Positions 4,978 through 54,710 of a DNA stretch of 64,000 nucleotides are shown one piece after another; the first letter of the stretch is position 1; each line of letters begins with the position of its first letter. Under the pieces are notes generated by a model. The model searched no databases. It was not told where the DNA came from and saw nothing but the letters and a program-made list of their open reading frames with translations. The DNA is from Patescibacteria group bacterium (GTDB lineage: Bacteria; Patescibacteriota; Minisyncoccia; Ryanbacterales; GWA2-47-10b): NCBI GenBank assembly GCA_038064855.1, contig JBBTSE010000002.1, forward strand, positions 8,530-72,529, in the 5' to 3' direction. Both the position numbers and the translations under genes were made by a program.

Positions 4978-7900
4978 CTACAGAACGTCCGTGGCCCTGC
5001 GGACACGTCGAGCGCCCTTTGCAAGTATGCGCGACACGGCCTCTACCCTGGCGCGGGAGTCGCTCGCGGTGGGTGCCCGGTAGTTGACGCGCACTTTGTA
5101 GCCGCGAACGGTCGCTGGTGTACCGGCTTCCGCCTCCTCGGTGTCGAGATGCACTATCAGCCCTTCCGGCGAGCAGACGGTGACGCGGGCTAGGCTCTCT
5201 GACGCAAGCGACGACTGGACTGCTCGTGAAAGGTCACGCAGCGCCGACTTCTCTCGCGCGACGGCGATCACTCGGTCGAAGCCGGCGGCAAGGCACTTCT
5301 GGATGTTCGCAAGCTCATGCTCGGGGTTGGTCGAGATTGAGATCTCGCAGGCGATGCGCTTTCCGTCACGCGAGAGCGCTACGTCGACTCGGCCCGCGCC
5401 ATCGAGGACGTCTTTCTCGATGGTCGCCTTCCAGCCGCGGTCCTCGGCAAGTCGCTTGATGAGGTGTTGGAGGTACTTGTGTTCGGCTCCGCCTCTGCCG
5501 GACGCCGGTGCGGCGGGTGACGTCGTCGCTGCAGGCGGACGTCGCGATGGCGGCGGTGTTGCCCTTGGCGGTAGGCAAGAGGTTGCAGGGACGGGGTGCT
5601 CCGCCACTACTGGCTCCATAGCCGCGATCGGGGTGTCGATCGTCGTTGGCCGCGGCTGCTCAACGTCGGTAGCCGCACGTTTGACTCCGAGCCCCGGCTC
5701 GACCGCTTCTCGCGGCCTCGCGTAGCTCTCGCGCGAAAGCCGGACAATCTCGTCCACCCGGGACCGAGCCTCGGAGGGATCGACCGCCTCGATCGGGAAC
5801 GTTCGCAAGTTGAAGTCCTGGTCACTGCGCTCAAGCCGGCAAATCGCCTCGCCCACGGCGAGGGACTGGAGATCGTTGGCATCGAACGAAGAGAATCCGT
5901 GCGCAAGCAGCCGCGCGTCCTGATCGCCGACGCGAAAGCAGATCCGGGTGGCGGGGTTGGTGAGCACAGCACTCGAAAGCCGTCCGTCCTGGTCTTGGAG
6001 TTGCCGCGTGTCTTGGTGCGCGAGCACCAGACCGAGATGGTACTTGCGAGCTTCGGCAAGGAGAGCGGCTACCGACGGGGTGGCAAAGTTCTGGAACTCG
6101 TCGATATAGAGGTGGAAGTCGGGCCGCTCGCTCTCGGCGAGCTGCTGGCGCGAGAGCGCAGCCTGATGGAATTTGGAGACAAGAAGCGCACCCAAGAGGT
6201 GCGCGTTTTCGTGTCCGATGATGCCCTGCGAGAGCTTGGCGAGGAAGATCTTCCGGCTGTCCATGAGTGACCGGAGGTCGAGCGTGCCTCGGCGCTGACC
6301 GACCATGAGCCGGATGAGCTTCGGGCGCAGGAACGCATCGAGTCGCGTCAAGATCGAGGCCGACGGATTGCCTTTGAGGAGCGGGTACTCCTTTTCGAAG
6401 TAGTAGACGACCTCCGCGTCCCGGACGCTCGCAAGGAACTCCTTCCGGAATGCCGGATCGACGAGGAACTTCCGGAGATCGAGGAGCGACCCGCCGGCGT
6501 CACTCTCGAGGAACGCGAGGATCGCGTTCCCCAAGATGGACGTCATCTGGTCCCCCCAGGATGTCGCGAATCTCCGGAAGATCGCGACGAGATCAGAGGA
6601 CAAAAGGTTCTTCTCGACCTCGGAGTGCGCTTCGAGCACGTTGAACCCGACCGGGTACTCCTCATCGGACGGATCGAGGATCGCAACGTCCGAGAACCGT
6701 TTCTCGGGAATCCGAGCAAGCACTTCGTCGATGAGGTCTCCGTGCGGGTCGAGCACCCCGACGCCGTCGCCGTTCTCGATGTCCTGCAGGATCATCCGGA
6801 GGAGCAGCGTGGATTTTCCGGTCCCTGATGCCCCGACCACGTAGGTGTGGCGCATCCGGAGATCAGGATCGATCGTGACCGTCCTGGTCTTCCCGCGATG
6901 CGTGTTCTCGCCAAGGACAACGCCCTTCCGCGAAGCTCCGGCCGCCGCTCTCGTGGTCCGTGCTTCCCGAGCGAGGCTCTCGGAGCGCACGGACACCGAC
7001 GGAAGGTGGACGAGCGAGACGACTTCATCACTCGAAAGGAGCATGCCTGACCGGTGCGTGCGCCGAGCGAGGAGATCTTCCTCGTGAAGGTCGTCCGGAT
7101 AGTCGTCGTTGGAAAGCGGGATCAGCTCATTGCCGCCGGGGTTCGCAAACTGCCCAAGGCTTCCGCCGAGCGTCCTGACCAATGACCATGCGCGTTCACG
7201 ATCGGGGCAGCGTGCGGCGACACGCACCACAGCAGCGAAGAAAGGATGCGCGATTTTCTCGGCTGCCTGCGATAAAATCTCGGGAGCGTCGGCAAAGAAG
7301 CTATCCCCATCACCATCCGTGACCGCGCGAAGAACGCTCGGCGCCCACGGGTTGCGTGTCGCCTGCGAGAGCACCTGTACGAGACCGACCTCATTGTCGC
7401 GAAGGTCCCCGAGTGCTGCCACCACCGAGATCAGAGGATCGACGTCGAAGTCCTTGGCAATCTTGAGCGGGAGCATGAACTCACGCGACAGCCCGAAGTC
7501 GACCACGAGGCCGTGCCCGTCATCCGCGCAGCTCCAGAGATCGCGAAGCGACTCGGTCGCTGGAACGATGCCCGTCTCGGGGAAGTAGGCACCGAGCGCA
7601 CGCCGGATATCCGCGGAGTCGGACGCACGACACGCGAGCGTGACTCGCACCTCGCCCGATCGGCCAGTTAGCTCGAAGGAGACCGGGTGCTCGACCGGCG
7701 AGAGCGCCAACAGAAACCGCTCGGCGCGCTCCTTGGTGACCTTCAGATCGCCGGGCAGCGTGATCGTGTGCTCGACGATCTCATCACCGAGCCGATCTTC
7801 GAGGGGAAGCGGTTCGTCATCGACCTCGCTTTGGAGGTGCCCGGCCTCGTTCGCCCGAGCGCTCGACCCGCGAAGGCGCTCCACCCAGCGGCTCAAGCGC

Positions 7901-8067
7901 GTGTGCTTGCGTCCATCGTCGCGCTGGCCCTGTCGTGGAGGCAGCGTGTGGCCGAAGAACGGCCGGAACGGAGGCTCGACGACGACCGGCGCATCCCACA
8001 CCTGCCAACCCCGACCGCGGATCTCCCAGCGGTAGAACTCCTGGGTGAGATGCTCCTCGACCGTCAC
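4978..8067 (-). CDS. Giant TraD/TrwB/VirD4-like (FtsK-HerA superfamily) P-loop ATPase with long N-terminal extension and a C-terminal restriction-endonuclease-like domain
   Basis: Walker A YVVGASGTGKSTLLL followed by DPHGDL; Walker B HLYIDEFQNFA; LVLAHQ motif. Pro/Ser-rich linker, then a C-terminal region (HKYLQHLIKRL...GRVDVALSRDGKRIACEISIS...FDRVIAV) with a PD-(D/E)xK-like pattern. It is the last gene of a five-gene operon. Confidence 0.8.
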   Translation of the reverse strand: MTVEEHLTQEFYRWEIRGRGWQVWDAPVVVEPPFRPFFGHTLPPRQGQRDDGRKHTRLSRWVERLRGSSARANEAGHLQSEVDDEPLPLEDRLGDEIVEHTITLPGDLKVTKERAERFLLALSPVEHPVSFELTGRSGEVRVTLACRASDSADIRRALGAYFPETGIVPATESLRDLWSCADDGHGLVVDFGLSREFMLPLKIAKDFDVDPLISVVAALGDLRDNEVGLVQVLSQATRNPWAPSVLRAVTDGDGDSFFADAPEILSQAAEKIAHPFFAAVVRVAARCPDRERAWSLVRTLGGSLGQFANPGGNELIPLSNDDYPDDLHEEDLLARRTHRSGMLLSSDEVVSLVHLPSVSVRSESLAREARTTRAAAGASRKGVVLGENTHRGKTRTVTIDPDLRMRHTYVVGASGTGKSTLLLRMILQDIENGDGVGVLDPHGDLIDEVLARIPEKRFSDVAILDPSDEEYPVGFNVLEAHSEVEKNLLSSDLVAIFRRFATSWGDQMTSILGNAILAFLESDAGGSLLDLRKFLVDPAFRKEFLASVRDAEVVYYFEKEYPLLKGNPSASILTRLDAFLRPKLIRLMVGQRRGTLDLRSLMDSRKIFLAKLSQGIIGHENAHLLGALLVSKFHQAALSRQQLAESERPDFHLYIDEFQNFATPSVAALLAEARKYHLGLVLAHQDTRQLQDQDGRLSSAVLTNPATRICFRVGDQDARLLAHGFSSFDANDLQSLAVGEAICRLERSDQDFNLRTFPIEAVDPSEARSRVDEIVRLSRESYARPREAVEPGLGVKRAATDVEQPRPTTIDTPIAAMEPVVAEHPVPATSCLPPRATPPPSRRPPAATTSPAAPASGRGGAEHKYLQHLIKRLAEDRGWKATIEKDVLDGAGRVDVALSRDGKRIACEISISTNPEHELANIQKCLAAGFDRVIAVAREKSALRDLSRAVQSSLASESLARVTVCSPEGLIVHLDTEEAEAGTPATVRGYKVRVNYRAPTASDSRARVEAVSRILAKGARRVRRATDVL

Positions 8068-19238: not shown

Positions 19239-20456
19239 TCAAGCGATGTCGCGAGGTGCCAGCGTCTCCGCGCTGAATGGGTGCGTCTGGATGCCGAGGG
19301 TCATGAGCTTCAGGTAGATCTCGTGGTTCGGCAGGTAGACGAGATCGCCCTCCGAGATCTCGGGGTAGAACTCGCGCGCGACGATCTCGGCATCGGCCAA
19401 GCCGATCCGAAACGAGATGATCGTGCCGACGTTGCCGATGATCGCGTCGCGGATCTCCGGTGCCAACTGCGAGAGGTACTGGTGCGCGAGCACCAACCCC
19501 ACGCGGTACTTGCGGAGCTCCGAGAGCATGTTCGCGAGCGAGAGGGTCGTGAAGTTCTGGAACTCGTCGAGGTAGACCCAGAAGTGTCGCCGCTCGGTCT
19601 CCGGGATCTCCGCTCGGCCGAAGGCGGCGTTGCCGATCGACGAGACAAGTAGCGATCCCAAGAGGTTCGCGGTGTCCTCGCCGATCTTCCCCTTGGCGAG
19701 GTTGACCAGCAGGATCTTGCCCTCGTCCATGACGCGCCGAAGATCGAGGCCTTCTCCCTTGCCGTTCAAGATCCCGTAGAGGAGGGGGTTGGCAAGGAAC
19801 GCCCCCACCTTGTTTTGGATTGGTGCGATCGCCTCGGCGCGAAACCGATCCGGATACCCCGGAAATTCCCGCAGCCAGAAGGACCGGACCTGCGGGTTCT
19901 CGACTCGTTGTCCGACGCCTCGCCGGTAGTCGTCGTCCGAGAGCAGGCGAAGGACATCCGCGAGCACCGGCTTCTCCTGGTCGAGAAGCGCCAAGAGCGC
20001 ATTCCGCAGGATGTGCTCGAGGCGCGGTCCCCAGGAGTCAGCCCACAGCTTTCGGAACACCTCGAGCATCGCGGAGGCGGCAAGTGACCTCTTCTCGAAG
20101 GGAACCCCGCCGAGCGGGTTGAAGGAGAGGGTCCGCGATCGGTCAGGCACGTCGAAGTAGATGACATCGCCCTTGCGCTCGTCGGGGACCGCGCCGAGCA
20201 CGCGCTCGACCAGATCTCCGTGGGGATCGACCAGGGCGAAGCCGTAGCCTGCACGAAGATCATCCCGCATCAAGGTTTCAAGGAGCGTCGACTTTCCGGT
20301 TCCCGTCTTGCCAAGCATATATATATGGAAGAGCCGATCGGTGGTCCGAATCCCGAAGGGCCTGTGTTCTGTGCGAAAGTTCGTCCGGGCGAAGACGGCA
20401 AGGTGGTTCTGGGTGTGGTGCATCCTCACCCATGATCGAGCCCATCGCTCCAGCAC
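19239..20456 (-). CDS. TraD/TrwB-like P-loop ATPase (short paralog of the 4978-8067 product, ATPase core only)
   Basis: Walker A MLGKTGTGKSTLLETL, DPHGDL, Walker B VYLDEFQNF, LVLAHQ. About 40% identity with the giant ATPase is apparent by eye. Confidence 0.8.
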   Translation of the reverse strand: MLERWARSWVRMHHTQNHLAVFARTNFRTEHRPFGIRTTDRLFHIYMLGKTGTGKSTLLETLMRDDLRAGYGFALVDPHGDLVERVLGAVPDERKGDVIYFDVPDRSRTLSFNPLGGVPFEKRSLAASAMLEVFRKLWADSWGPRLEHILRNALLALLDQEKPVLADVLRLLSDDDYRRGVGQRVENPQVRSFWLREFPGYPDRFRAEAIAPIQNKVGAFLANPLLYGILNGKGEGLDLRRVMDEGKILLVNLAKGKIGEDTANLLGSLLVSSIGNAAFGRAEIPETERRHFWVYLDEFQNFTTLSLANMLSELRKYRVGLVLAHQYLSQLAPEIRDAIIGNVGTIISFRIGLADAEIVAREFYPEISEGDLVYLPNHEIYLKLMTLGIQTHPFSAETLAPRDIA

Positions 20457-22593: not shown

Positions 22594-23115
22594 CCTCCCG
22601 CATGGCGGGGGAGGTTGCCACGAAGGGAACACCACCCCTCTTGGTTCCTGATCGAGCCAGGGTCATACTTGGGCAGCATCACGCGGCGATGCTGCGGCCA
22701 TCGTGTGCTTGAGTGTCGGTGAGTTCTCGTATCTTCGCGAGCGTCGCAAGAGCGGAGGCATCAGCGCTCAGGGCAAGGGTTCGAACGTCCTCTACGTAGG
22801 TCCACATCTCAATAAAGAATCGAACTCCGGACTGCTGGGGGCAGTCCGCGGGCGAGCTGTGGGAGCGAGCAAGATTCTCCCCAGGTCCACCACTTCGCTT
22901 CGGTGTTATGATAATTGTATAGAATCGAAAAAAAATAAAGTTAATCGTCTTGTCTATCGAAGTTAAATTGTGACCATTAAAATAGCTTAGTTTATATGAT
23001 TCCCCTCTTAAATATGGCATTTCACGTGAAATATTGGACATTTCTGTGTATATCTATTGGACATTGTGGATAAAGGACATTAAAATCATGTCTTTTATGT
23101 CCTTTTGCCTTATGT

Positions 23116-23625
23116 ATGCCTCAATATAGCGAAAAGCGTCGTATAGGGAACATTGCCGAAGACGTATCGGTGGTGTTTCTTGTGAAAAGCGGTCATATGG
23201 TTTTAGATAGAAACTATCTAAAGAAGTGGGGCGAACTCGATATTGTATCGGTTGACCGATCCGATACTATCCATTTTATAGAGGTTAAGTCTAAAACTAT
23301 CGGCTTTTCACGTGAAATGAATATAGATAATACTCAAAATTTAGTTTCACGACAAGTTTCACAAAAAAGTTTCACAGCAAATACATTTAAAATAGAGCTT
23401 TCACGTGAAAGCATTGATGAGGAAAGTGATGGATATCGACCAGAAGATAATGTCCATTACTTTAAGCAGAAGCGCATGATGCGGGCGATCGAGTCATATA
23501 TAATGGAAAACGAAAGTAAGATGGGGGATAGAGAGTGGCAGATTGATGTTTTGGCCGTAGCCCTCGATTTTTCACGGGAAACGGCTATAATGAGGCATAT
23601 TGAAAATGTGATTTTTGATATATAG
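23116..23625 (+). CDS. yraN: YraN/UPF0102 family endonuclease-like protein with about 60-aa internal insertion
   Basis: RRIGNIAEDVSVVFLVKSGHMVLDRNYLKKWGELDIVSVD...IHFIEVKSK and C-terminal REWQIDVLAVALD match UPF0102. The insertion is encoded by TTTCAC/GTGAAA repeats. Confidence 0.55.
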   Translation: MPQYSEKRRIGNIAEDVSVVFLVKSGHMVLDRNYLKKWGELDIVSVDRSDTIHFIEVKSKTIGFSREMNIDNTQNLVSRQVSQKSFTANTFKIELSRESIDEESDGYRPEDNVHYFKQKRMMRAIESYIMENESKMGDREWQIDVLAVALDFSRETAIMRHIENVIFDI

Positions 23626-23660
23626 TCGTGTGAGACTATTTTTCACGTGAAAGCATGATT

Positions 23661-23734
23661 CGGAGTGTAGTATACCGGTAGTACGTCTGCTTTGGGAGCA
23701 GATAGACTGGGTTCGATTCCCAGCACTCCGACAA
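23661..23734 (+). tRNA. tRNA-Pro (anticodon TGG)
   Basis: Acceptor CGGAGTG/CACTCCG, anticodon arm TCTGC-TTTGGGA-GCAGA, T-arm CTGGG-TTCGATT-CCCAG, discriminator A. CCA is not encoded. Confidence 0.7.
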
Positions 23735-23988
23735 TTCATAATAAAAGGGAATCGAAGGGAAGTCTGGGAGACTTCCCCAGCTCCGCACTAAGCGAAGCGC
23801 AGAAGGAGGATTCCCAGCCCGCCCAGGGCGAGGCAGGCACTCCGACAGTCTCTATGGGGCTTGCAAATAAGTTGTTTTTGTGATATAGTTTTTTCGACAC
23901 TTTAGGCCCTTGAGAACTGAATAATATAGGATTAACGCATTCAGAGAGAATCTCGGATGCTTACAGAGAAGAGAAAAGGAAGGAGAGA

Positions 23989-25353
23989 ATGGTTATGAAG
24001 CGTTCACTGTTCGGATTTTTGGTGGTTCTCATGTTCGTGCCGCACTTTGCTGGCGCGAGTGAGATGCCCCGTAACCTCGAAGACTACTGTGTCTTCGCGA
24101 ACAAGAAGTTGCTGCTTGGCACCAACGCCGCCATCATCGGTGGTAGTGCTGGCGTCAATCGCGTGATAGAACGAGCGTCGCGGTTTTCGATGGTGATGCA
24201 ATCGCACTCCATCGTCGACCCCAGCTTCCCAGTCGCCGCCTCGTCGATCAAGATGGTCGACTACGCGACGGTAGGGGGTCTGTTTAGGGATTTCCTCACG
24301 AGAGTGGGGATCGTCAACGTCAACTGGGAGTTCGATGGTGATTTCCCTGTCCTTACCTTGCCCGACCTCCCATTCTTCTTGCCGGAGGACATTCACATCA
24401 TCCCGCAAGAAGGGACGACATGGCTCGGACCCGGCCGGTATGGAATCCTCGAAGTAGGACCCGGCGCGACCGTCGTTCTGACGGGCGGCGAGTATCACTT
24501 TCTGCAGACCTGGTTTCGTGCCGGTTCGCAGTTCTACTACGAGAATCCAGTCGAGGTCAGGGTGCAGGGAAAATTCATGGGCGACGAAGGCATCGTCGTC
24601 CGCTCTGCGCCTTGGGCTGATGTACTACCACACGATGCAAACTTCGTGGTAGGTGGTGCGATGGCGACCTTTGGACCCTATGGTTCATACGATGGGATGT
24701 TCTATGCCCCGCGCAGTAGCATTCGAGTCCAGAGGCAGACTACGATCACGGGTCAGGTGGTTGGTAACAAGGTTCGGTTCTCCGATAACGTTCGGTGCAT
24801 TTGGGCGGCGGGAATCGTACCAACACCAACACCGAGCCCAACTCCAACTCCTATGGCGACCCCGACACGGACTCCCACACCCACTCCTACTCTCACGCCG
24901 ACACCAACTCGTACGCCCACACCGACGGCAACACAGGTTCCAACTCCTACTCCGGCGCCTACGGCGACACCCACTCCGACCCCGACTCCCACACGCACGC
25001 CAAGTCCGACTGTAGCGCCTACGGCGACTCCCAGTCCCACGCCAGTACCTACTGCAACCCCGACAGGAACTCCTACGCCGACCGCGGTACCAACACAAAC
25101 GCCGCCAGTATGCATCCCAAGCGCAGAAGTGTGCAACGGGCGTGACGATGACTGCGATACCAAGATCGACGAGGGTAATCCTGGTGGTGGCATCTCGTGT
25201 AGTACCGGGAACCTCGGTGTGTGCGCGGCGGGTGTGACCAAGTGCCACCAAGGCAATGTGATCTGCACACAGAACACGGGCGCCTTCCCCGAGATCTGTA
25301 CCGATCAGCTCGACAACGACTGCGATGGTACGGTCAACGACGGATGCCCGTAA
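23989..25353 (+). CDS. Secreted protein with about 100-aa Pro/Thr-rich linker and C-terminal MopE-like putative metal-binding Cys motif
   Basis: RBS aaggaaggagaga. Signal [21 protein letters not shown]. (TPTP)n linker. C-terminal [15 protein letters not shown]...[18 protein letters not shown]. Confidence 0.7.
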
Positions 25354-25596: not shown

Positions 25597-27861
25597 ATGA
25601 AGAAGGGAATACTTTCCGTATTCTTTTCTCTTGCATTGGTATTTTTCCCAGTACTCGCACACGCAGAAGATATTAGTGAAAATAATCTTCCGCAGTGGTT
25701 TGGGCTCTCATCTACCTCTGTAGGGGTAGGAGATCCAGTGGAGTTCACAATTGGCGTAAATGATTTGGATGGCGATCCTCTCACTGTTACGACCGAACTT
25801 CCTGATGGTGCATCGTACGACTTGCCGACGGGTATCTTTTCATGGACGCCAAGCGCGGCTGGTATTTACACTGCTAACTTTTCAGCGAATGACGGTCATG
25901 GTGTAGGCTCACATCTTGTAACAATCGAAGTTAATGCAGTAAACAACCTTCCTGTTTGGTCAGGTCCTCGTAGTGCAACGACAACCGTCGGCACTCTCAT
26001 CAATTATGTAATTGGCGTGAATGATCTCGATGGTGACGCGTTGACTATTACGACGACATTGCCTGATGGCGCGTCGTACGATCAATCAACGGGCGTCTTT
26101 TCATGGACACCTACTGCAATTGGTATGTACACTGCGCGCTTCTCAGCTTCAGATGGAAAAGGTGTCGGGGAGCATACACTTACTGTTGAGGTGGTTGAAA
26201 GCTTAAATCATCTCCCTGTTTGGTCAGGTCCTCGTAGTGCAACGACAACTGTCGGCACTCTCATCAATTATACATTTGGTGTGAATGATCTTGACGGCGA
26301 TCCACTTACACTCGAAATCATGCGTCCCGCAGGCGCCACCTATGCCACAAGCACGGGGGCGTTTATCTGGACACCGACAACTCAAGGGCTCTTCGTTGCC
26401 ACATTCATCGCTTCTGATGGTGTTGGTAGCGCAACGCATACATTTACTATTGAGGTCAATGAAGTAACGAGTGGCAATCGCCCTCCGTACTTTGTAAATT
26501 TCAATCCCGGTATTTTTGCGACAGCACTTGAGAAATACGAATATGACGCGAATGCCGAAGATCCCGATGGGGATACTTTGAGCTATTTGCTTACAAAGCG
26601 CCATGTTGGTATGGTGATTGCCACATCAACAGGTGTTATCACATGGACTCCAGAAATAGCACAGGTATCGTCAACGCCATATGACGTTATCGTCGCGGTT
26701 ACAGATGGTACCTATACGGTCACTGAAGATTTTAAAATCACAGTTACCCAAAACCATCTTCCTGTTTGGTCAGGTCCTCGTAGTGCAACGACAACCATAG
26801 ATACTCTGGTCATGTTCACCATCGGAGTAAATGATCTCGATGGCGATCCGCTCAAGCTTTCACTTGTGCGGCCCGTAGGATCAGTATATGCCACGAGCAC
26901 AGGCGTCTTTATGTGGACGCCAACCATGATCGGTACCACTGATGTTTTATTCAGTGCGTACGATGGCACGGGTACATCAACACACAAAACTACTATTGAA
27001 GTAGTAAGTGGCAATCACCCGCCCATCTGGTCAGGTCCTCGTAGTGCAACGACAACCGTCGGCACTCTCATCAATTATACATTTGGTGTGAATGATCTTG
27101 ACGGCGATCCACTTACACTCGAAATCATGCGTCCAGCAGGCGCCACCTATGCCACAAGCACAGGGGTGTTCTCATGGACGCCGGGTGCAACTGGCACTTT
27201 TATCGCAAAGTTCACTGCAAGCGATGATAAATTTGCTACCAGCACCCACACATTTACTATCGAAGTGAATCCCAAGCCAGTAGATCCTCCACCACCACCC
27301 CCACCGCCACCCGGCGGAGGGGGAGGCGGAGGCGGTGGAGGAGGCGGAGGCAATGGGCCTCCATGCCTCATCAATAATAGTTGTAACACTCCACCAGCAC
27401 CCGCACTTCCACCCCCACCTGCACCGAGTACTCCCGTAAATAATCCAGTTCCTTCACAACCAAACCCCAGCCCACGACCCGTGCAGCCAACGCCAGCCAT
27501 ACGGCCGGCACCTGCACCAGATCTTGCTCTCGTATCAAACCTGATTGCGACGACGACGCCCGCTGAAGGCCCGTCGCTTGCGTCTGTATTACTTGCGGGA
27601 TTATTCAACTTCTTAGGTTGGCTCCGCTCAAATTGGTGCATCCTTGGTTGGTTGCTCTGGCTTCTCACGCTTCTCGCGTTTATCCTCTATGTGATCTTTA
27701 CGAACACAGACGAAGATGACGAGGAAGTAAAAGAGTCAACGCCACCTAACGGATTGCCAATCATGCCGTTCGATGATGAATCGAATGAGCCGATAAAAGA
27801 AGCTGTATCGGAGAATACGCTCAGCGAATACTGGGAAACAACTCCACAAGAGAATAAGTAA
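25597..27861 (+). CDS. Surface protein with 7 cadherin-like/putative-Ig (He_PIG-type) repeats, poly-Pro/poly-Gly tract and C-terminal membrane anchor
   Basis: Signal MKKGILSVFFSLALVFFPVLAHA. Repeated unit LPVWSGPRSATTTVGTLINY..GVNDLDGDPLT...TG.FSWTP...G.Y.A.F.ASDG. PPPPPPPPPGGGGGGGGGGGGG, then a C-terminal hydrophobic anchor and an acidic tail. Confidence 0.75.
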   Translation: MKKGILSVFFSLALVFFPVLAHAEDISENNLPQWFGLSSTSVGVGDPVEFTIGVNDLDGDPLTVTTELPDGASYDLPTGIFSWTPSAAGIYTANFSANDGHGVGSHLVTIEVNAVNNLPVWSGPRSATTTVGTLINYVIGVNDLDGDALTITTTLPDGASYDQSTGVFSWTPTAIGMYTARFSASDGKGVGEHTLTVEVVESLNHLPVWSGPRSATTTVGTLINYTFGVNDLDGDPLTLEIMRPAGATYATSTGAFIWTPTTQGLFVATFIASDGVGSATHTFTIEVNEVTSGNRPPYFVNFNPGIFATALEKYEYDANAEDPDGDTLSYLLTKRHVGMVIATSTGVITWTPEIAQVSSTPYDVIVAVTDGTYTVTEDFKITVTQNHLPVWSGPRSATTTIDTLVMFTIGVNDLDGDPLKLSLVRPVGSVYATSTGVFMWTPTMIGTTDVLFSAYDGTGTSTHKTTIEVVSGNHPPIWSGPRSATTTVGTLINYTFGVNDLDGDPLTLEIMRPAGATYATSTGVFSWTPGATGTFIAKFTASDDKFATSTHTFTIEVNPKPVDPPPPPPPPPGGGGGGGGGGGGGNGPPCLINNSCNTPPAPALPPPPAPSTPVNNPVPSQPNPSPRPVQPTPAIRPAPAPDLALVSNLIATTTPAEGPSLASVLLAGLFNFLGWLRSNWCILGWLLWLLTLLAFILYVIFTNTDEDDEEVKESTPPNGLPIMPFDDESNEPIKEAVSENTLSEYWETTPQENK

Positions 27862-41108: not shown

Positions 41109-42863
41109 ATGAGAATCGATTCAGGGCAACTCAAAGCGTTTCTTCTTGATTCGGGGCTTGTCTCCGAAAAAGATATTGACGCCGCAGTTAAAAAGGCCAA
41201 AGAGCAGGATTTGCGTCCTGGAGATATTCTCGTCGCCCAAGGGAAAATAACCCAAAAAGATATTGAGCGCGTGTATGGGTACATCCTCGGGATTCCATTT
41301 GTAAATCTTGAAGGTGAAAAGATTGACCCCGAAGTGCTTCATGCGGTGCCCGAACCTATTGCGCGAGCGCACAATATCATCGCTTATAAAAAGATGGGTA
41401 AGGATTTGGAGGTAGCGATGCTCGATCCGGAGGATCTCGAGACTATTGAGTTCATCCACAAAAAATCGGGGCTTACTATCAAGCCACGCATGACTAACGA
41501 AAAATCGATGAAGTATCTCCTTTCTCTCTATCAGAAGAGTCTGGAGGCGGAGTTCGGTGAGATTATCAAGGGCGAGTCGGACGGGCTTGTTATGAGTGCC
41601 GCGTCAGTTGGTGAGGCGGGTGAGAGTGGCGAGGATCTCGAGAAGGTGGCGCAAGAGTTGCCCATCATCAAGATCGTCGATACTCTTATCCGCCACGCGA
41701 TTTTGCAAAAAGCATCTGACATTCATATCGAGCCCCTCGAAAACGAGCTTTTGGTACGGTACCGCATCGATGGTATATTGCGTGATGCGATGGTGTTGCC
41801 CAAGAAAATCGCATCAGCTGTTATCGCGCGCGTCAAAGTGCTCTCGAGCTTAAAGCTTGATGAAAAACGATTGCCACAAGACGGTCGTTTCAAGATCGAA
41901 TCGCCCGAATATAAGTTTTCAACTCGTGTCTCGGTATTGCCAGTGTATGACGGTGAAAAGATCGTCATGCGTTTGTTGCCGGAGAATGCGCGTGGCTTCA
42001 CGCTCGAATCACTCGGGTTTCATGGTGAAGGACTTGAACTGTTACATCAAAATATTAAAAAATCTGTCGGTATGATTTTAGCCACTGGTCCTACCGGATC
42101 AGGTAAGACGACGACGCTCTATACGATGATGGATTTGGTGAATACTCCCGATGTCAATATTTCTACCATTGAAGATCCGATTGAATACCGTATGCCTCGC
42201 ATTAATCAGACACAGGTGCGTCCCGATATCGGGTTTACCTTTGCCAACGGTTTGCGCAGTCTGTTGCGTCAAGATCCTGATATCTTGATGGTAGGTGAGG
42301 TTCGTGACTCGGAGACCGCTGGTCTCGCTATCAATGCCGCGCTCACTGGTCACTTGGTACTGACGACATTGCATACCAACTCTGCGGCAGGCGCGTTGCC
42401 GCGTCTCATTGATCTTGGCGTCGAGCCCTTTTTGATCGCGTCAACGGTCAATGTGATTATCGCTCAACGATTGGTGCGCACACTCTACAAATCAAGAGAG
42501 GAGTATCGTTTGACAAAAGATCAAATCGCCCAGCTCGCAAAGATTGTTGATATCGATCGTATACTTGGGTTTTTACGCGCGGAAAAAATTATCGCGCCAA
42601 AAGCAAAGATCGAAGATGTGCCATTTTATAAACCGGTACCCGCATCTGATGTGCCCGATGGCTACCAAGGGCGTATCGGTGTGCATGAGGTTATGACGGT
42701 GACGCCCGCGATGCGTGAGATGGTAATGAAAAACACGAATCCATCGGAGATTGATGCGATCGCGCGTAAGTCAGGCATGATGAGTATGCTCGAAGACGGT
42801 ATTTTTAAAGCGGCGCAGGGGATTACTACGGTCGAAGAAGTATTGCGCGTGACACAAGAATAA
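41109..42863 (+). CDS. pilB: Type IV pilus assembly ATPase PilB (GspE family)
   Basis: N-terminal GSPII_N domains, then Walker A LATGPTGSGKTTTLY and the His box. Confidence 0.9.
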   Translation: MRIDSGQLKAFLLDSGLVSEKDIDAAVKKAKEQDLRPGDILVAQGKITQKDIERVYGYILGIPFVNLEGEKIDPEVLHAVPEPIARAHNIIAYKKMGKDLEVAMLDPEDLETIEFIHKKSGLTIKPRMTNEKSMKYLLSLYQKSLEAEFGEIIKGESDGLVMSAASVGEAGESGEDLEKVAQELPIIKIVDTLIRHAILQKASDIHIEPLENELLVRYRIDGILRDAMVLPKKIASAVIARVKVLSSLKLDEKRLPQDGRFKIESPEYKFSTRVSVLPVYDGEKIVMRLLPENARGFTLESLGFHGEGLELLHQNIKKSVGMILATGPTGSGKTTTLYTMMDLVNTPDVNISTIEDPIEYRMPRINQTQVRPDIGFTFANGLRSLLRQDPDILMVGEVRDSETAGLAINAALTGHLVLTTLHTNSAAGALPRLIDLGVEPFLIASTVNVIIAQRLVRTLYKSREEYRLTKDQIAQLAKIVDIDRILGFLRAEKIIAPKAKIEDVPFYKPVPASDVPDGYQGRIGVHEVMTVTPAMREMVMKNTNPSEIDAIARKSGMMSMLEDGIFKAAQGITTVEEVLRVTQE

Positions 42864-42866
42864 TCT

Positions 42867-44111
42867 ATGGCGCGTTTTCAATTTCGGGCGCGTGACCGGC
42901 AGAGTGTTGAGCAGTCGGGTCTTCGTGATGCAGGTGATCGTTTTGAGCTCGCGCGCTTTTTGCGTACCGAGGGCCTCCTGTTGCTTGAAGCGCACGAGAT
43001 CAGCGCCTTACCCGGTGTGAATATGCCTGGCGGGCTCAAAAAAAATGTTTCCATCGATCTTAGTACCTATTTACGGCGCGTCACGCTTTCTGACAAAATC
43101 GTATTTTCAAAAAACTTGGGAGTGATGATTGGCGCAGGTCTCCCACTCACGCGCGCACTCGACGCGCTTTCCAGGGAGTCACATAACCCAAAGTTTAAAG
43201 TTACGATCTTAGCTATCGAAGATCAGATTCGGCAGGGTAAGACATTTGCTGAATCGCTCGGCAAGCATCCAAAAATTTTCCCTTCCCTCTATATTGCTAT
43301 GGTTGATGCAGGCGAGAAGTCAGGTAAGCTCAAAGAATCGCTCACACTTCTAGCTTCCCAGATGCAGGCGGATTACGATCTCGTGCGCAAGGTGAGGGGA
43401 GCGATGATGTACCCATCGATTATTTTAGCGGCGATGGTGCTCATCGGTGCGCTCATGATTGTGTATGTAGTACCAACACTCTCCGCGGTGTTTAAAGAGC
43501 TCGATGTCGAGCTACCAGCTTCCACACAATTCATCATCGACTTCTCCGACTTTTTTACTAACCACTTTATGCTGGTCATCCTCGGTTTTTTTGGGTTTAT
43601 TTTTAGTGTCATCGCATTTTTTCGTACAACCTTCGGCAAGCATTTGGCGGACAATGTTGTTATTCGTCTACCAGTGATCGGCCCGCTCGCCAAAAAGTTC
43701 AACGCCGCACGCGCTTCGCGCACGCTCTCGTCACTCTTATCGGCAGGAGTGCAGGTGATGGAAGCGCTCGAGATTACCGCGCGTGTGGTGCAGAATCATT
43801 TGTATTCACAGACGCTCTCGGACGCAAAAAAATCGATCCAAAAAGGCGATACGATTTCAAAAGTATTTTTAGCAAACGAACATCTCTATCCATCACTGGT
43901 AGGCGAGATGCTCTCGGTAGGTGAAGAGACGGGCGAGAGCTCAAAGATGCTCGGCGAGGTCGCGTCGTTTTATGAACAGCAAGTTGCCGATGCTACCAAA
44001 GATCTCTCGACCATTATCGAGCCGGTGCTCATGCTTATCATTGGTGCGGTCGTAGGTTTTTTTGCTGTCTCGATGATCACACCGATGTATTCATTGGTAG
44101 GTGCCATTTAA
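42867..44111 (+). CDS. pilC: Type IV pilus platform protein PilC (GspF family)
   Basis: Two GspF repeats and polytopic membrane helices. Confidence 0.9.
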   Translation: MARFQFRARDRQSVEQSGLRDAGDRFELARFLRTEGLLLLEAHEISALPGVNMPGGLKKNVSIDLSTYLRRVTLSDKIVFSKNLGVMIGAGLPLTRALDALSRESHNPKFKVTILAIEDQIRQGKTFAESLGKHPKIFPSLYIAMVDAGEKSGKLKESLTLLASQMQADYDLVRKVRGAMMYPSIILAAMVLIGALMIVYVVPTLSAVFKELDVELPASTQFIIDFSDFFTNHFMLVILGFFGFIFSVIAFFRTTFGKHLADNVVIRLPVIGPLAKKFNAARASRTLSSLLSAGVQVMEALEITARVVQNHLYSQTLSDAKKSIQKGDTISKVFLANEHLYPSLVGEMLSVGEETGESSKMLGEVASFYEQQVADATKDLSTIIEPVLMLIIGAVVGFFAVSMITPMYSLVGAI

Positions 44112-44112
44112 T

Positions 44113-44706
44113 ATGCGCAGAGCATTTACCATGATTGAGCTCATTATCGTGATAGGCGTCATTGGTCTTTTGGCAGCACTCATCATACCGAGCTTTGGTA
44201 CATGGCGTGAGCGGACAGTGGTCAGGTCCGCGGCGCGTGATGTTGAGAGTATTTTGAAACTTGCGCGGTCAAAGTCTCTCGCGTCAGAAGATGGAGCCAA
44301 GTACGGCGTGCTTTTTTATGATGGGGCGACAACTTTTTCTCTTTGTAAAAATCCAGATGCTATACGATTGGGCGATAGTGGCTACTATATATATACCTGT
44401 CCCACGCTTGTAAATAGCTACTCTTTGCCAAACTCGCTTTCTTTTTGTACTCCGTATACTTCGAGTATCGAACTTCAAAGTATCAGTCCAGGGTGGACTA
44501 TCATACCCGGCGTTATATTCTCAAAACTGACTGGTGAATATGAAGATATTACGCCATCCGCTACCGAAGGAGTGATATACTTTTATAATAAGAATAAGAT
44601 CGCGAGTCCCTGTGGTAGTGGTGAGGCGGCACTGACAATTTGTCGTAACAACAAAACTTGCGGTGGAGTCGTGATCACAAAATCTGGTGTGATTTATGAA
44701 AAATAA
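44113..44706 (+). CDS. Prepilin-type N-terminal cleavage/methylation domain protein (type IV pilin)
   Basis: MRRAFTMIELIIVIGVIGLLAALIIP is a class III signal. Confidence 0.75.
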   Translation: MRRAFTMIELIIVIGVIGLLAALIIPSFGTWRERTVVRSAARDVESILKLARSKSLASEDGAKYGVLFYDGATTFSLCKNPDAIRLGDSGYYIYTCPTLVNSYSLPNSLSFCTPYTSSIELQSISPGWTIIPGVIFSKLTGEYEDITPSATEGVIYFYNKNKIASPCGSGEAALTICRNNKTCGGVVITKSGVIYEK

Positions 44707-45187
44707 TAAAAAAGCCTTTTTACTCCTCGAGCTTCTTGTAGCGATAGCGCTTATCTCTACGGTGTTTGTCACACTTTTTTTCTTGCAGTCAAAACTTTTA
44801 CAGATCAAACAAGACGGCATCATGAAAGTACGCGCAACCTATTATGCACAAGAGGCGTTTGAGGCGCTACGGTATTTGCGCGCGACTGGCGGGTGGTCAA
44901 CGATCTCGTCACCAACTACTGGTGCTACAGATTATTATGCGACATTTGCCAGTAACACATGGTCGCTGAGTACTACGCCTCCCGCAGCGCTCGATGGTAT
45001 TTTCACGCGCAGTATTCGGTTTTCCCCCGTTTATCGTCAGGGCGACCAGCAGGGGGTTATTATTACAGGCCCCTCTGGATATGATGACCCCGGCACACGC
45101 AAAGTGACGGTGATGGTGAGCTGGGATAATGGATCGAAAAACATAGTACTCGATACGTATCTTACTGATTGGACTTCAAATCTATGA
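44696..45187 (+). CDS. Pseudopilin/minor pilin (prepilin-type N-terminus)
   Basis: KKAFLLLELLVAIALIS. Confidence 0.65.
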   Translation: MKNNKKAFLLLELLVAIALISTVFVTLFFLQSKLLQIKQDGIMKVRATYYAQEAFEALRYLRATGGWSTISSPTTGATDYYATFASNTWSLSTTPPAALDGIFTRSIRFSPVYRQGDQQGVIITGPSGYDDPGTRKVTVMVSWDNGSKNIVLDTYLTDWTSNL

Positions 45188-45702
45188 GACGGCGCGCCTT
45201 TACTCTTATTGAACTCTTGGTGTATGTGGGTGTGCTGGTAATAGTACTCGGCGCCATTTTCTTTTTTATGGTCAATATTATTACCAATGAACGCTCAATC
45301 GGCGACCGTGTGCGCATGATGGACGAAGCAGACTTCGCGATGCGCCAAGTACTGGACCATGCGCGTGGTGCAAAAAATTTAGAATCGACAGATTTTGCTT
45401 TTAGTAATGATGGCGAACTTACACTCACAAAGACAGATGCCGTAGTCACTATTAAGGTTGATAAATCTGATCCTACCAAGCCAAAGCTTATTATGACGAA
45501 AAATGACGGCATCAATCCTGTTTCCACGCGCATACTTACATCACCGCGTGTGGCAGTTGATATTTTTACTCTCGAGTGTGCGGGTACTATAAGCCCGTGT
45601 AGTAGTAATGCCAAAGGTGTGCGTATTAAGCTCGGTCTTCGTGATCTGGTGACGTATCAAACTATTACTATTACCACGGGCGCTACCCCGCGTGGTTATT
45701 GA
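45184..45702 (+). CDS. Pseudopilin/minor pilin (prepilin-type N-terminus)
   Basis: MRRRAFTLIELLVYVGVLVIVLGAIFFF. Confidence 0.65.
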   Translation: MRRRAFTLIELLVYVGVLVIVLGAIFFFMVNIITNERSIGDRVRMMDEADFAMRQVLDHARGAKNLESTDFAFSNDGELTLTKTDAVVTIKVDKSDPTKPKLIMTKNDGINPVSTRILTSPRVAVDIFTLECAGTISPCSSNAKGVRIKLGLRDLVTYQTITITTGATPRGY

Positions 45703-48589
45703 TATGAAATACGCAGGATACAACAGGGGGCTCGCAGCACTCACGACGATGATTATCGTACTTGTGATACTTGTGATACTGATCGCGAGCTATGGGCTTA
45801 TCACTGCGAGCTCTGCGCGGCAATTTTCCAATGTGTACCAGTCGGCGCGCGCATACTATGTGTCCGAAGCGGGTACAGAAGATGGTATCGCGCGGTATTT
45901 GCGCTCAGGGGGTGTAGTTACTGGCAGTTGGACGGTCGCCGGCCTCGTATCTGGTACGACCGATGTTGTCGCCCCTACACCAACTAACAACAATTTGATC
46001 AGTACGAGTAATGTTGGTGGGCGTAAGCGCGCTTTAAAGATAACGCTACAACTCAATCCTATCTATACCTACGCGGGTTTTATCGGCGACGGCGGTCTCT
46101 GGATGTCTGATAGTACGGATATCAAATGTGTGAGCGGTACTGGCTGTAAGGGCGAAGATGAAGCTGGTGATGCAGGTACAGTCTGGGTCAATGGTCCTGT
46201 ATGGGCAAATGGATCTGATGGTGGCGGAAAGCTTGGCAAAAGTGCGACTGATGCACGCGTGGTAGGGCATGTATATACAACCGGCAAAGTTGATATCAGG
46301 CCATCAGAGAGAAAAGAACCCGATCCCGTTAGCTCAAATCATAAGTTTGTGTGTCTGACGGACAATCCTGTCGCATTAACTGAACTGGTGTCTCCCGAAT
46401 GCAATGAAGTAGGAGCTATCAAGGCGACAGCAATCGCGCAAAGAGTGCGGATTCATGAAGGAGGTAAAAACTCAAAACGCTACGCATTTCGTGTTGCATA
46501 TCACGGAAGCGCTGATAAGTTGCCCACCGTGAAGTCATATCCCGTGCGTGAAGTGGGTAGTACGGGAGTTTGGGATACACCACAAAGAATTTTGCTCGAA
46601 AAAGATATTGGTATCGGTGCGAATGACGAACGGCTTTTTGCAAAATATAAAATTGACACTGATCATGATGGTTTAACAAATAGTCCGGGTGAAGTACTCA
46701 CTGCGGATACGCCCGAGTGGGTGTATTTCAATATTCCTGGTTCGAGCGGCCTTCAATCTGTCGATGACGATGACGGCGTTTATATCGTACTGCAGGCGGA
46801 AGGCTCTGGCGGCGATGTAAATAGTTATTACAAGGTTTATTATGATGAGAGTGCGACGCCGTGTAAGAACGATGTTTGTGGTCTTGTTCACACGGGCGGG
46901 TACGGGCAATATATTACCTCGAACCTTTTTTGCTCGAAGGACGCGAGTACGCCTTTTACCTGCAATGCAAATCTCACCAATGGCACCGCACCTCTTCTCC
47001 CGGCGGACGCTTTTAATAAACCGCGTACCGATTTTCATTTTCGTGTGTATTCACAAGGTACCGAAGATGATAACTATGAAAACTCGCTACAAGTATTCGG
47101 CGAGCTTCACGCCGATGAAGCCATTGGCGCGAGCGTCATAGGTGAAGGGTCATCCGCCAACAAAGATATTGCGTTTGTGGGCAGACGCTTTGCCTCGGCG
47201 TTTTGGAAAGATCGCCAAGCGCATGCGCGACTCTGGGGGTATAGTTTCGTTCAGCAGCTTGATAATTGCGATCTTGGAGGTTCGGGTACGGAGACGGTAG
47301 GTGATGATATTGAATCGCGCCGAGGGTGGCGGCCATTTTGTGATTCACAGGTACGCGACGTGCGAAAAACAACAAATGGGACTAATTTTAGCAGGGTAAA
47401 TTATGGCGTTTCTGAGCGCAGATATTCAGTAAATTCCACACTCTATCCGGTCAATACGGATGTTGCCACGCGCTTTTACTGCAATCCTTATAAAAACGCA
47501 GGCAATGTGACGCACGGTGGTACTGCGGCATCATGTACACAGGATTCACCGTTCAATACTTACACTCCGTATGAGTTTAATACCATGTCACAATCGAGCG
47601 GGCGCGGATGTTACTTTGGTTGTGGATCGGGCGAGAACACTAGCTGCGGCTCGGATGTATATAAGACGCACTATATTTATCCCGCGCCTGATATAAGCGC
47701 ATACGGACAGTATCCATATAATTTCTGTAAATACGCAGGCGGTGCGGAAGATATAGCATATGTCGACGAGGCAGCACTTAAAACTATACTTACTGCTCCA
47801 GCGCCCACCGGTTATGGTATTGATTCGGCAGTGCAAGATCTCTATCTACCCAAAGCACCACCAGAAAAAGGTCCATGGCCTATTTCTGAATCAAAAATCA
47901 ATGGGTGGGTAAGTTCGATTTTTACAAGTACGTGCCTTCCTGGCCCGCACATTATCACTGCATCACAGTCATGGCCTCCACTAGGACAGGCAGGCGCACC
48001 AACCTGCATAAACGGTGACCTTGTCGTACGCAACGGGGCAAAACTTACTCTCAACAGTGGTGCACATATGCACGTTAAAGGCAATTTACATCTTGTAAAA
48101 GACCCAGGCAAGCAAGGCGGCAAGATTGAGATGAACAATAGTAGCGGTGCGTTAGGATGGCCTGCTAACACTGCAGGGATTGTGATCGTCGATGGGTTTG
48201 TAGACACCGAAAATGATACTCAACTTTTAGGTGGCAACAAAGCGCAGGATGAATATATGCTTGTTATTTCACGCTCGTACAATCAAGGCGATTATGATCC
48301 CTTTAACTACCAGAATCCAACTGATCTGACTTCGGAAAACGACAAAGCGGCGATTTATAGTTTGAGCCGTCAAGACGGAGGGGCAACGGTATCGTTTTAT
48401 GCTCCCAATGGTTCCGTAGTGCTCGGGCGAGATCCTTCCAATCCCAACGCTATGCAGGTGGCGGCATATAAGTTGGTAATGCGCCGCAATACCCAAGTAA
48501 GCTATGATTATGGTGTGCTCGATATGATCTTCCCAGGTGGGCCCGCAAGCGCGTCTGGGGTCAGTGACTATGATGAAATTGCACCATAA
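45692..48589 (+). CDS. Giant pilus-associated protein with PilX-like N-terminal domain (965 aa)
   Basis: N-terminus GLAALTTMIIVLVILVILIASYGLITASSARQFSNVYQSARAYYVSEAGTEDGI matches the PilX_N pattern. A large Cys-containing extracellular region follows. Confidence 0.6.
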   Translation: MVIDMKYAGYNRGLAALTTMIIVLVILVILIASYGLITASSARQFSNVYQSARAYYVSEAGTEDGIARYLRSGGVVTGSWTVAGLVSGTTDVVAPTPTNNNLISTSNVGGRKRALKITLQLNPIYTYAGFIGDGGLWMSDSTDIKCVSGTGCKGEDEAGDAGTVWVNGPVWANGSDGGGKLGKSATDARVVGHVYTTGKVDIRPSERKEPDPVSSNHKFVCLTDNPVALTELVSPECNEVGAIKATAIAQRVRIHEGGKNSKRYAFRVAYHGSADKLPTVKSYPVREVGSTGVWDTPQRILLEKDIGIGANDERLFAKYKIDTDHDGLTNSPGEVLTADTPEWVYFNIPGSSGLQSVDDDDGVYIVLQAEGSGGDVNSYYKVYYDESATPCKNDVCGLVHTGGYGQYITSNLFCSKDASTPFTCNANLTNGTAPLLPADAFNKPRTDFHFRVYSQGTEDDNYENSLQVFGELHADEAIGASVIGEGSSANKDIAFVGRRFASAFWKDRQAHARLWGYSFVQQLDNCDLGGSGTETVGDDIESRRGWRPFCDSQVRDVRKTTNGTNFSRVNYGVSERRYSVNSTLYPVNTDVATRFYCNPYKNAGNVTHGGTAASCTQDSPFNTYTPYEFNTMSQSSGRGCYFGCGSGENTSCGSDVYKTHYIYPAPDISAYGQYPYNFCKYAGGAEDIAYVDEAALKTILTAPAPTGYGIDSAVQDLYLPKAPPEKGPWPISESKINGWVSSIFTSTCLPGPHIITASQSWPPLGQAGAPTCINGDLVVRNGAKLTLNSGAHMHVKGNLHLVKDPGKQGGKIEMNNSSGALGWPANTAGIVIVDGFVDTENDTQLLGGNKAQDEYMLVISRSYNQGDYDPFNYQNPTDLTSENDKAAIYSLSRQDGGATVSFYAPNGSVVLGRDPSNPNAMQVAAYKLVMRRNTQVSYDYGVLDMIFPGGPASASGVSDYDEIAP

Positions 48590-49106
48590 CAAAGGCATGA
48601 GTATTCTCGAGCTTCTCATCGTTATCGGCGTGATGGGTATGCTCGCGGCGATGTCATTTGTGGCCTTTCGATCATTTTTTAACAACCAAGAACTCAACGC
48701 GGCTACCGAGCAGGTAGTAGCAATATTGCGTAGCGCCCGAACCTATACTCTGTCTTCACGCAATGATAGTGCTGGGGCTACGACCAGCACATGTTATGGG
48801 GTAGCTGTTACTCCAAGTAACATAACGCTTATGTTTGACGATAGTTGTAACTGCTCACTTGATAGCGTGGTGAGCACCACGCAGTCATTGCCGGGGGGCA
48901 CATATATATCCATTGAGACATTTCCCACATATGGAGGATATGACGGCCTCTCTTTTCAACGAATAACCGGAAATGCGCAGGATATTGGCTCAAGTTGCGC
49001 GTCACTACCGGCTGGGGGCCGTATCCTTATCCTCACCTCCCGCCGCAACATCAGCATGGCGAAAGTTATAAAGATAACACCTTTGGGCAATATTGAGGTA
49101 CAATGA
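48570..49106 (+). CDS. Pseudopilin (prepilin-type N-terminus)
   Basis: MMKLHHNKGMSILELLIVIGVMGMLAAMS. Confidence 0.7.
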   Translation: MMKLHHNKGMSILELLIVIGVMGMLAAMSFVAFRSFFNNQELNAATEQVVAILRSARTYTLSSRNDSAGATTSTCYGVAVTPSNITLMFDDSCNCSLDSVVSTTQSLPGGTYISIETFPTYGGYDGLSFQRITGNAQDIGSSCASLPAGGRILILTSRRNISMAKVIKITPLGNIEVQ

Positions 49107-52258: not shown

Positions 52259-52275
52259 AATTTCTCATCCTTCCA

Positions 52276-52391
52276 GTACAAAGGCAGCTTTTGTACTTGG
52301 GGTGGTTGTGGTAGAATAGAGTCATGGAAAGAAAAATCGTGTTTTCTGTCGGCGAGTACTATCATGTGTATAATCGTGGCGTTGATATCTT
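52276..52391. repeat. REP hairpin (GTACAAAGGCAGCTTTTGTAC) plus truncated duplicate of the RAYT promoter/5' end (first 20 codons)
   Basis: Nearly identical to 52878-52993. The truncated ORF MERKIVFSVGEYYHVYNRGV stops shortly after. Confidence 0.75.
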
Positions 52392-53582: not shown

Positions 53583-53594
53583 GGCTGCCTTTGT

Positions 53595-53623: not shown

Positions 53624-53643
53624 AGTGGTGTATACTAAAAGCA

Positions 53644-54708: not shown

Positions 54709-54710
54709 AT

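Follow-up and report, generated by a model that had tools for sequence, protein, structure and literature searches.

A cluster of parS-like palindromes in and around yraN as a candidate ParB-loading locus in Patescibacteria

We analyzed a 64,000-nucleotide stretch of DNA from a Patescibacteria group bacterium (GenBank assembly GCA_038064855.1, contig JBBTSE010000002.1, positions 8,530 to 72,529 of the forward strand; hereafter the window), in which a 12-bp palindrome, TTTCACGTGAAA, recurs in and around yraN, a gene coding for a small nuclease-like protein. With a probability of roughly 70%, these palindromes appear to be a closely packed group of centromere sites of the parS type that may serve in the loading of ParB, i.e., a known element in an unusual setting. 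The assignment to the parS kind is based on sequence, conservation and clustering, from which we infer both that ParB is the binder and that the locus is a centromere.

Palindromes in the yraN region

A scan of the window detected four exact copies of TTTCACGTGAAA, against 0.01 expected from shuffled sequences, and no further copy was found in the rest of the 64 kb. All copies of the palindrome in the window, including imperfect ones, fall within 640 bp, and together they amount to six complete or nearly complete sites plus three half-sites (Table 1). An earlier, sequence-only reading of this DNA had described such an array, which proved to be real, although the positions it gave were 0–5 bp off. 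It had also recognized the 1-mismatch variant and the three half-sites but overlooked the copy with two mismatches at 23176, and it had correctly placed one copy in the promoter region and another between yraN and tRNA-Pro.

Three of the copies inside the yraN open reading frame (ORF), two of them perfect, are read in one frame, as G-F-S-R-E-M, E-L-S-R-E-S and D-F-S-R-E-T. The peptide FSRE, reported by the sequence-only reading as shared by three copies in the ORF, therefore occurs twice, the remaining copy encoding LSRE. The degenerate copy at 23176 uses the second frame of the palindrome, whereas the third frame would hold TGA. The window contains six GTTTCAC heptamers in total, three of which make up the half-site triplet; this triplet is translated as VSR-Q-VSQ-K-SFT and its units occupy two different reading frames. 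The core at 23399 extends to a 16-bp palindrome, GCTTTCACGTGAAAGC (23397-23412).

Table 1. Features of the yraN region, with positions numbered from the first nucleotide of the window
Feature	Position	Strand	Remarks
Upstream parS-core palindrome	23020..23031	none	Exact match; 85 bp 5' of yraN ATG
DnaA-box-like 9-mer TGTGTATAT	23045..23053	-	1 mismatch to TGTGNAWAA
Promoter-like TGGACA-17-TAAAAT	23058..23086	+	Consensus match only; DnaA box in spacer
Perfect DnaA box TGTGGATAA (reverse complement TTATCCACA)	23065..23073	-	Sole perfect box in window
yraN (UPF0102, PD-(D/E)xK nuclease-like), 169 aa	23116..23625	+	Pfam PF02021, E 2.9e-13
Degenerate parS-like site TTTCTTGTGAAA	23176..23187	none	2 mismatches; codons 21-24 = F-L-V-K
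YraN insert coding region, residues 62-108	23299..23439	+	Two perfect cores and three half-sites
Perfect core	23306..23317	none	In-frame F-S-R-E
Three direct GTTTCAC half-parS units	23344..23375	+	Starts 23344, 23356, 23369; spacing 12 and 13 bp
Perfect core	23399..23410	none	Reads L-S-R-E; conserved in clade
1-mismatch copy TTTCACGGGAAA	23570..23581	none	Reads F-S-R-E-T; turn between last two beta strands
Perfect core	23641..23652	none	In 35-bp spacer, yraN stop codon to tRNA-Pro
tRNA-Pro(UGG)	23661..23732	+	Syntenic neighbor of yraN

Relationship to parS

The parS consensus TGTTTCACGTGAAACA, with halves TGTTTCAC and GTGAAACA, is the site at which ParB nucleates (Jalal et al., bioRxiv 10.1101/724823), and TTTCACGTGAAA corresponds to positions 3-14 of this consensus. 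The complete 16-mer appears in unaltered form in 27 papers. We compared the copies with a 14-16-bp palindrome matching TGTTNCACGTGAAACA. The window copies fit the core and not the outer positions: each perfect core has 3-4 mismatches to the 16-bp parS, all of them at outer positions, and the 12-bp core is intact. The orthologous sites of relatives, taken from a set of 160 related Patescibacteria yraN loci (153 or 152 in some counts, 132 distinct loci in others), fit the full consensus. For example, complete TGTTTCACGTGAAACA is present just 5' of yraN in L010, L028, L029, L031, L041, L043, L048, L056 and L062. Of the 132 distinct loci, 52 have the perfect 14-mer GTTTCACGTGAAAC in the 350 bp that precede yraN, and 18 have the perfect 16-mer. 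Among 220 sites outside the clade to which the window belongs (the window, L001-L003 and L081-L084), the outer G is present in 93% and the outer C in 82%.

The palindrome thus shares its core with chromosomal parS of the ParABS systems of B. subtilis, Caulobacter and others, and the sites of the relatives are exact 14-16-mers. Some chromosomal parS sites also lie within coding DNA, e.g., inside B. subtilis spo0J. The presence of several sites in one short region is likewise similar to Caulobacter, where at least five parS sites are clustered near the origin (PMC5815017). However, several features set the locus apart from known chromosomal parS. The clade of the window keeps the 12-bp core only; six sites and three half-sites are packed in 640 bp, mostly in frame within one small gene whose loop they lengthen; and the locus is cca-tRNA-yraN rather than the parAB or dnaA region.

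The half-sites have a counterpart in P. aeruginosa, whose ParB binds half-parS GTTTCAC in vivo without spreading; half-parS heptamers in this organism are GTTCCAC and GTTTCAC, the latter being one of six enriched at ParB peaks in chromatin immunoprecipitation sequencing (PMC5961200). Whereas the P. aeruginosa half-sites are scattered genome-wide, the putative half-sites described here form a conserved tandem triplet with units 12-13 bp apart inside a parS cluster.

We also considered the Noc-binding site (NBS), TATTTCCCGGGAAATA, which is alike in architecture. Noc is a Firmicutes paralogue, and its sites are scattered away from the terminus and are unclustered. The upstream copy, read as a 16-mer (23018-23033, CATTTCACGTGAAATA), has an NBS-like A at the outer specificity position and, when set against the NBS, the copy at 23570 has a GGG half. 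However, instead of the central CCCGGG of the NBS (within ATTTCCCGGGAAAT), all four perfect copies have a CACGTG center.

Conservation across relatives

To describe the distribution of sites (no more than one core mismatch), positions were measured from a conserved YraN anchor, the KKWGE motif. Across 153 loci, sites formed three sharp peaks, located upstream of the ATG, at codon ~21 and just after the EVK strand. A fourth, broader peak falls within the divergent cca gene, at 850-1050 bp upstream. The density at the locus was 1.74 sites/kb, compared with 0.014/kb outside cca-yraN (12 sites in the 868 kb located more than 1.6 kb upstream or more than 0.7 kb downstream of the anchor), a difference of over 100-fold. 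At 600-1500 bp upstream of the anchor, the cca gene of relatives such as L048, L108, L034 and L073 contains 1-4 in-frame VSRET, VPRET or VTHET units, which are parS-like at the DNA level and fill a variable loop flanked by FGTVGV and IEVTPYR. The sites are therefore conserved as DNA regardless of coding context and are restricted to one or a few chromosomal regions.

With 4-7 sites per locus, the clade of the window, represented by eight loci with DNA, ranks highest among the 132 distinct loci, where the median is 1-2. The linkers of its YraN proteins have a conserved layout of a site, two to four half-sites and another site, and one more site is located between yraN and tRNA-Pro. Direct GTTTCAC units, two to four per locus and spaced 12-13 or 25 bp apart, were found at matching offsets in 8/8 clade loci, and the site downstream of yraN is likewise present in 8/8. 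The core at 23306 has a counterpart at equal offset in L001, L002, L003, L081, L082 and L084, while the copy at 23570 is common to L001 only. Synteny of yraN and tRNA-Pro was seen in L001, L003 and L081-L084.

One suggestion of the sequence-only reading was a miniature repeat that had colonized a coding region, and a self-spreading palindromic repeat in yraN with no host function, generated by mobility or by local duplication or gene conversion, could account for some observations. The units are indeed in frame, their number depends on the lineage and is highest here, a few flanking bases are common among copies (families D1 and D2), and an IS200-like Y1 transposase gene is present at 52926-53582. 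However, the units are not dispersed: no other copies occur in the 64 kb, and the 868 kb beyond cca-yraN of relatives contains only the 12 sites mentioned above. They also occupy orthologous positions in very divergent genomes, throughout a class-level lineage, which argues against a mobile element. Neither terminal repeats nor target duplications accompany them, and the unit matches a universal protein-binding site. Repetitive extragenic palindromes and miniature inverted-repeat transposable elements are defined by many dispersed, mostly intergenic copies that vary at orthologous positions, a pattern that differs from the one found here. We consider this explanation highly improbable.

YraN and its insert

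By Pfam match, motif and fold, the product of the gene is a member of the YraN/UPF0102 family. It is 100% identical to a protein from a Patescibacteria metagenome-assembled genome (MAG) in a protein database search, and its homologues all came from Patescibacteria (Ryan-, Nomura-, Wolfe-bacteria and others), except for a few MAG records labeled Methylomonas or Lentisphaeria. Residues G39, E40, D42, E56 and K58, which include the D...E-x-K nuclease-like motif, are invariant in the alignment. After the EVK motif, at position 45 of 80, the alignment to the Pfam profile is interrupted. In an AlphaFold model built from a 30-sequence alignment, the core has a predicted local distance difference test score (pLDDT) of 82-94 and can be superposed on 3fov, a UPF0102 structure, with a target-normalized TM-score of 0.86 (102-residue target), whereas residues 62-108 have a pLDDT of 39-56 and are mostly coil.

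The linker between EVK[ST] and PE[DE]N measures 50 aa in the window; among the loci its length ranges between 8 and 53 aa, the mode being 19 aa. Thus, an insertion relative to other YraN proteins, which the sequence-only reading had noticed, is present, but its size is ~30-45 aa rather than ~60 aa. Linkers are largely built of one to four in-frame units, and those of the clade are about 33-53 aa. According to the model, the insert is a tolerated surface loop, probably disordered. Its length tracks the number of DNA sites. The peptide of the insert looks like a passenger of the DNA element. A 16-nt inverted repeat, 94% complementary (TATGCCTCAATATAGC / GCTATAATGAGGCATA), was additionally observed between the start-codon region of yraN (23115-23130) and the 3' end of the ORF (23584-23599).

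Selection on DNA

Synonymous positions were informative with regard to what is being conserved. At the codon-21 site, relatives have the sequence xxG TTT CTC GTG AAA CAx, which encodes K/R-F-L-V-K-H/Q. Here, Lys is encoded by AAG in 61 cases and by AAA in 13, while the background share of AAG is 24%; Leu is CTC in 72 of 134 codons at this position (background 13%), and Val is GTG in 65 of 69 (background 22%). The single mismatch to parS at this site is forced by Leu (CTC) in place of His (CAC). A similar picture was found in VSRET units, in which GTT is used in 26/28 (p ~1e-10), CGT in 21/28 (p ~1e-11) and GAA in 27/28 (p ~1e-3). Arg in these units is never AGA or AGG, even though these loci use AGA more than any other Arg codon, and Ser is never AGY. 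Moreover, GTTTCAC half-sites are kept within the clade in two reading frames (VS-R/Q and S-F-T).

This synonymous skew toward parS indicates that selection acts on DNA. Taken together with the intergenic copies and with the units in a loop of the unrelated neighboring gene, it shows that the DNA, rather than the peptide, is the selected entity. It was also considered that the S-R-E and V-S-R-x peptides are a functional repeat of a lineage-specific YraN domain, with DNA palindromes as a by-product. In the protein alignment, the peptide VSRxVSxxSFT is conserved, VSRxVSxxSFT...SRE is common to orthologues down to 45% identity, and the ORF copies are all in frame, as this explanation would have it. 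However, copies of the sequence are also present in non-coding DNA on either side of yraN, synonymous codons are fixed toward the palindrome, half-sites are conserved across two reading frames, identical units are present in an unrelated neighboring protein, and the segment is predicted as a low-confidence coil and differs in length between loci (8-53 aa). A protein-level explanation cannot cover the intergenic copies, the codon skew, the two-frame half-sites and the cca units together, and we regard it as very unlikely. The sequence-only reading had offered a way to recognize a mere lineage-specific domain, namely a motif that is not enriched elsewhere and an insert that orthologues share as protein. 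Both are literally the case (the motif is unenriched in the rest of the window, and orthologues do share the insert), but the question was mis-posed, as it is the DNA rather than the peptide that is selected.

Upstream block and DnaA boxes

The palindrome upstream of yraN is located next to DnaA-box-like sequences and a promoter-like element. L001 and L081 carry TGTGGATAT in place of the box at 23045. Of 152 related loci, ~100 have a perfect DnaA box in the ~300 bp that precede the yraN ATG. The promoter-like element is flanked by direct repeats of TATTGGACATT (23032, 23055) and by an inverted pair, AAAGGACAT / ATGTCCTTT (23072 / 23097). In relatives, the region forms a conserved non-coding block of ~230 bp (tRNA 3' end - TGTCCTTTA - TGTGGATAAcTaTGTtggtA.TGTttATAAAgGACAt - TgTCTtTta - ... 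- ataaaagaca - GTTTCACGTGAAAC - ATG), which lies about 100-300 bp upstream of yraN and contains three box-like 9-mers in tandem as well as two inverted pairs, TGTCCTTTA/TAAAGGACA and TGTCTTTTA/TAAAAGACA. No Rfam family matches this block. It may act as a promoter under DnaA control, titrate DnaA through a cluster of boxes, or belong to an origin.

DnaA-box clusters are known inside and outside oriC, and the arrangement seen here, in which a perfect TTATCCACA is conserved next to the palindromes and two weaker tandem boxes follow it in relatives, is similar to them; however, the boxes are few, dnaA is not adjacent and the strand-switch signal is ambiguous. It could be argued that palindromes and DnaA boxes together are part of oriC or of a DnaA-titrating locus and not a stand-alone centromere. 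The frequent co-occurrence of boxes and the upstream palindrome (the ~100 of 152 loci mentioned above) would fit this idea, and the right flank exceeds the left in GC skew, both near the locus (60/69) and farther away (23/32, p 0.003). However, the near-flank shift is confounded by the minus-strand cca, and far from the locus the right flank has a skew of +0.049 and the left flank one close to zero instead of negative. In addition, genes are ~60-70% on the plus strand on both sides, no dnaA or dnaN signature was detected within ±6 kb, and there is one strong box only. Thus, oriC is not supported and we find this proposal quite unlikely as a replacement for the parS assignment, with which it is compatible rather than competing.

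A role of the palindromes as RNA hairpins or terminators was also examined and rejected as a general explanation. One terminator-like stem of 6 pairs was found (23397-23412, minus strand), inside the ORF, and a loop-less 12-bp palindrome is a poor hairpin. Rfam searches of the window and of four typical loci detected tRNAs only.

A model for ParB loading at yraN

In known systems, ParB nucleates at parS, binds CTP and slides to flanking DNA (PMC7053999; 10.1101/816959), and origin-proximal parS sites serve in the loading of SMC condensin (PMC4536313). By analogy, ParB dimers would nucleate on the palindromes of the yraN region, and CTP-bound ParB would then close into clamps and slide onto the flanking DNA; the resulting ParB-DNA complex would serve chromosome segregation, through ParA, and SMC loading. 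ParA moves ParB-parS complexes apart. Dense packing of sites would be expected to raise the rate of ParB loading at this single locus, and the half-site triplet may contribute local low-affinity ParB binding. Because two frames of the palindrome are free of stop codons (V/F-S-R-E-T and F-H/L-V-K), such sites can be written into coding DNA. In YraN, they occupy the N-terminal helix (FLVK) and the surface linker after the EVK catalytic strand, and extra linker copies have lengthened the latter to an insert of roughly 50 aa.

Several observations weigh against parS and ParB. First, searches with a ParB signature expression and with tblastn using four real ParBs gave no match in the window, in 160 related loci or in three extensions (1.29 Mb of related DNA); the span searched was 64 kb plus 10 kb of this genome (the right extension reached ribosomal protein operons) and ~1% of the genome of each relative. 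Pfam annotation of 53 window ORFs also revealed no ParB, and a protein database search with a consensus ParB matched only Firmicutes ParBs. Second, with regard to proximity to the origin, DnaA boxes are adjacent and GC skew differs between the flanks, but signatures of dnaA, parA and gyrB were absent within ±6 kb of the locus, and gene orientation does not change across it, being ~60-70% plus strand on both flanks. Third, the clade of the window largely lacks the outer G/C of parS (40%, compared with 87%), so that its effective motif is the 12-bp core. The outer guanine is one of two bases that distinguish parS from NBS (Jalal et al., bioRxiv 10.1101/724823), and a matching change in the ParB of this clade is therefore predicted. 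Fourth, parS position 6, the third base of Ser, drifts in VSRET units (TCT 8, TCA 8, TCG 7, TCC 5), and a free position 6 would be unexpected under selection for optimal ParB binding. The other synonymous positions of these units are fixed, and the FLVK site is mismatched at the same position 6. The in-gene sites are thus systematically one step off the perfect palindrome and appear to be selected as near-parS sequences.

Some of these points would favor an operator array for a transcription factor that recognizes TTTCAC-GTGAAA and controls yraN and/or the flanking tRNA genes, i.e., loss of the outer G/C in the clade and the failure to find ParB in the DNA searched (the window, the 10-kb extension and 1.29 Mb of related DNA). 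It should also be noted that one copy is 27 bp upstream of the promoter-like element and another just 5' of tRNA-Pro. However, sites in most relatives are exact 14-16-bp parS, five full or near-full sites are inside coding DNA or 3' of the gene, sites in relatives reach ~1 kb into the divergent cca gene, and no regulator gene is conserved beside the locus. An operator array therefore seems unlikely. The sequence-only reading, which had alternatively proposed operators for a CACGTG-binding regulator, was right in spirit about a dense array of binding sites, but the motif is the parS core and the likely binder is ParB.

A broader hypothesis, which we put forward tentatively and at somewhat less than even odds, is that cca-tRNA-yraN is a conserved chromosomal centromere of a class-level Patescibacteria lineage (Paceibacteria-type), positioned beside a conserved DnaA-box cluster. 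Under this hypothesis, parS units placed in frame within disordered loops of the housekeeping proteins YraN and CCA-adding enzyme would raise copy number, and the drift to a 12-bp core in the clade of the window would imply a ParB with altered outer-base specificity. If true, a cis-acting DNA element would be the selective cause of lineage-specific protein insertions.

Full-text literature searches combining parS, ParB and Patescibacteria found no paper, and those for ParB with Parcubacteria or Saccharibacteria returned irrelevant matches only. Thus, centromere sites in Patescibacteria appear to be undescribed, as does the setting, i.e., a conserved cca-tRNA-yraN locus with in-frame units in loops of two proteins and a copy expansion that creates an insert. 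The locus is a concrete and widely conserved candidate centromere for Patescibacteria. As the type of element is well known, the finding would extend established biology rather than overturn it. It also illustrates that recurring aligned peptides (such as VSRET and FSRE) and a lineage-specific insertion can be passengers of cis-acting DNA, which is relevant to the reading of many unexplained protein insertions in small-genome bacteria.

Other features of the window

The 3' end of tRNA-Pro, GCACTCCGACA (23723-23733), is repeated 114 bp downstream (23837-23847) across a short GC-rich stretch, and a looser repeat, GATTCCCAGCACTCC, is present at 23715-23729 and 23809-23823. The tRNA-Pro repeat looks like an att-type scar of an element integrated at the tRNA.

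On the other side, a 62% GC island (1-22900) borders on the yraN promoter; the remainder of the window has 48% GC and yraN 38%. The island codes for a large serine recombinase with helix-turn-helix domains (99-1892), TrwB/TraG-like coupling ATPases (4978-8067 and 19239-20456), giant NHL and SH3 proteins, HicAB, RadC and a NUDIX protein, and is probably an integrative (conjugative) element. An assembly chimera was rejected as the sole explanation of the GC jump, since the island-yraN junction is found again in a contig of an independent assembly (L163).

Large secreted-looking proteins with Pro/Thr-rich linkers and MopE-type metal-binding motifs, together with He_PIG, Big_9 and cadherin-like Ig domains, are encoded at 23989-25353, 25597-27861 and 58965-61397. 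An independent assembly of the population breaks at ~26.8 kb, inside the repeat-rich gene at 25597-27861. A type IV pilus cluster was found at 41109-55783, with a PilB-like ATPase, PilC, several pseudopilins with N-methylation motifs, PilM and PilN; it is interrupted by the IS200-like Y1 transposase gene (52926-53582).

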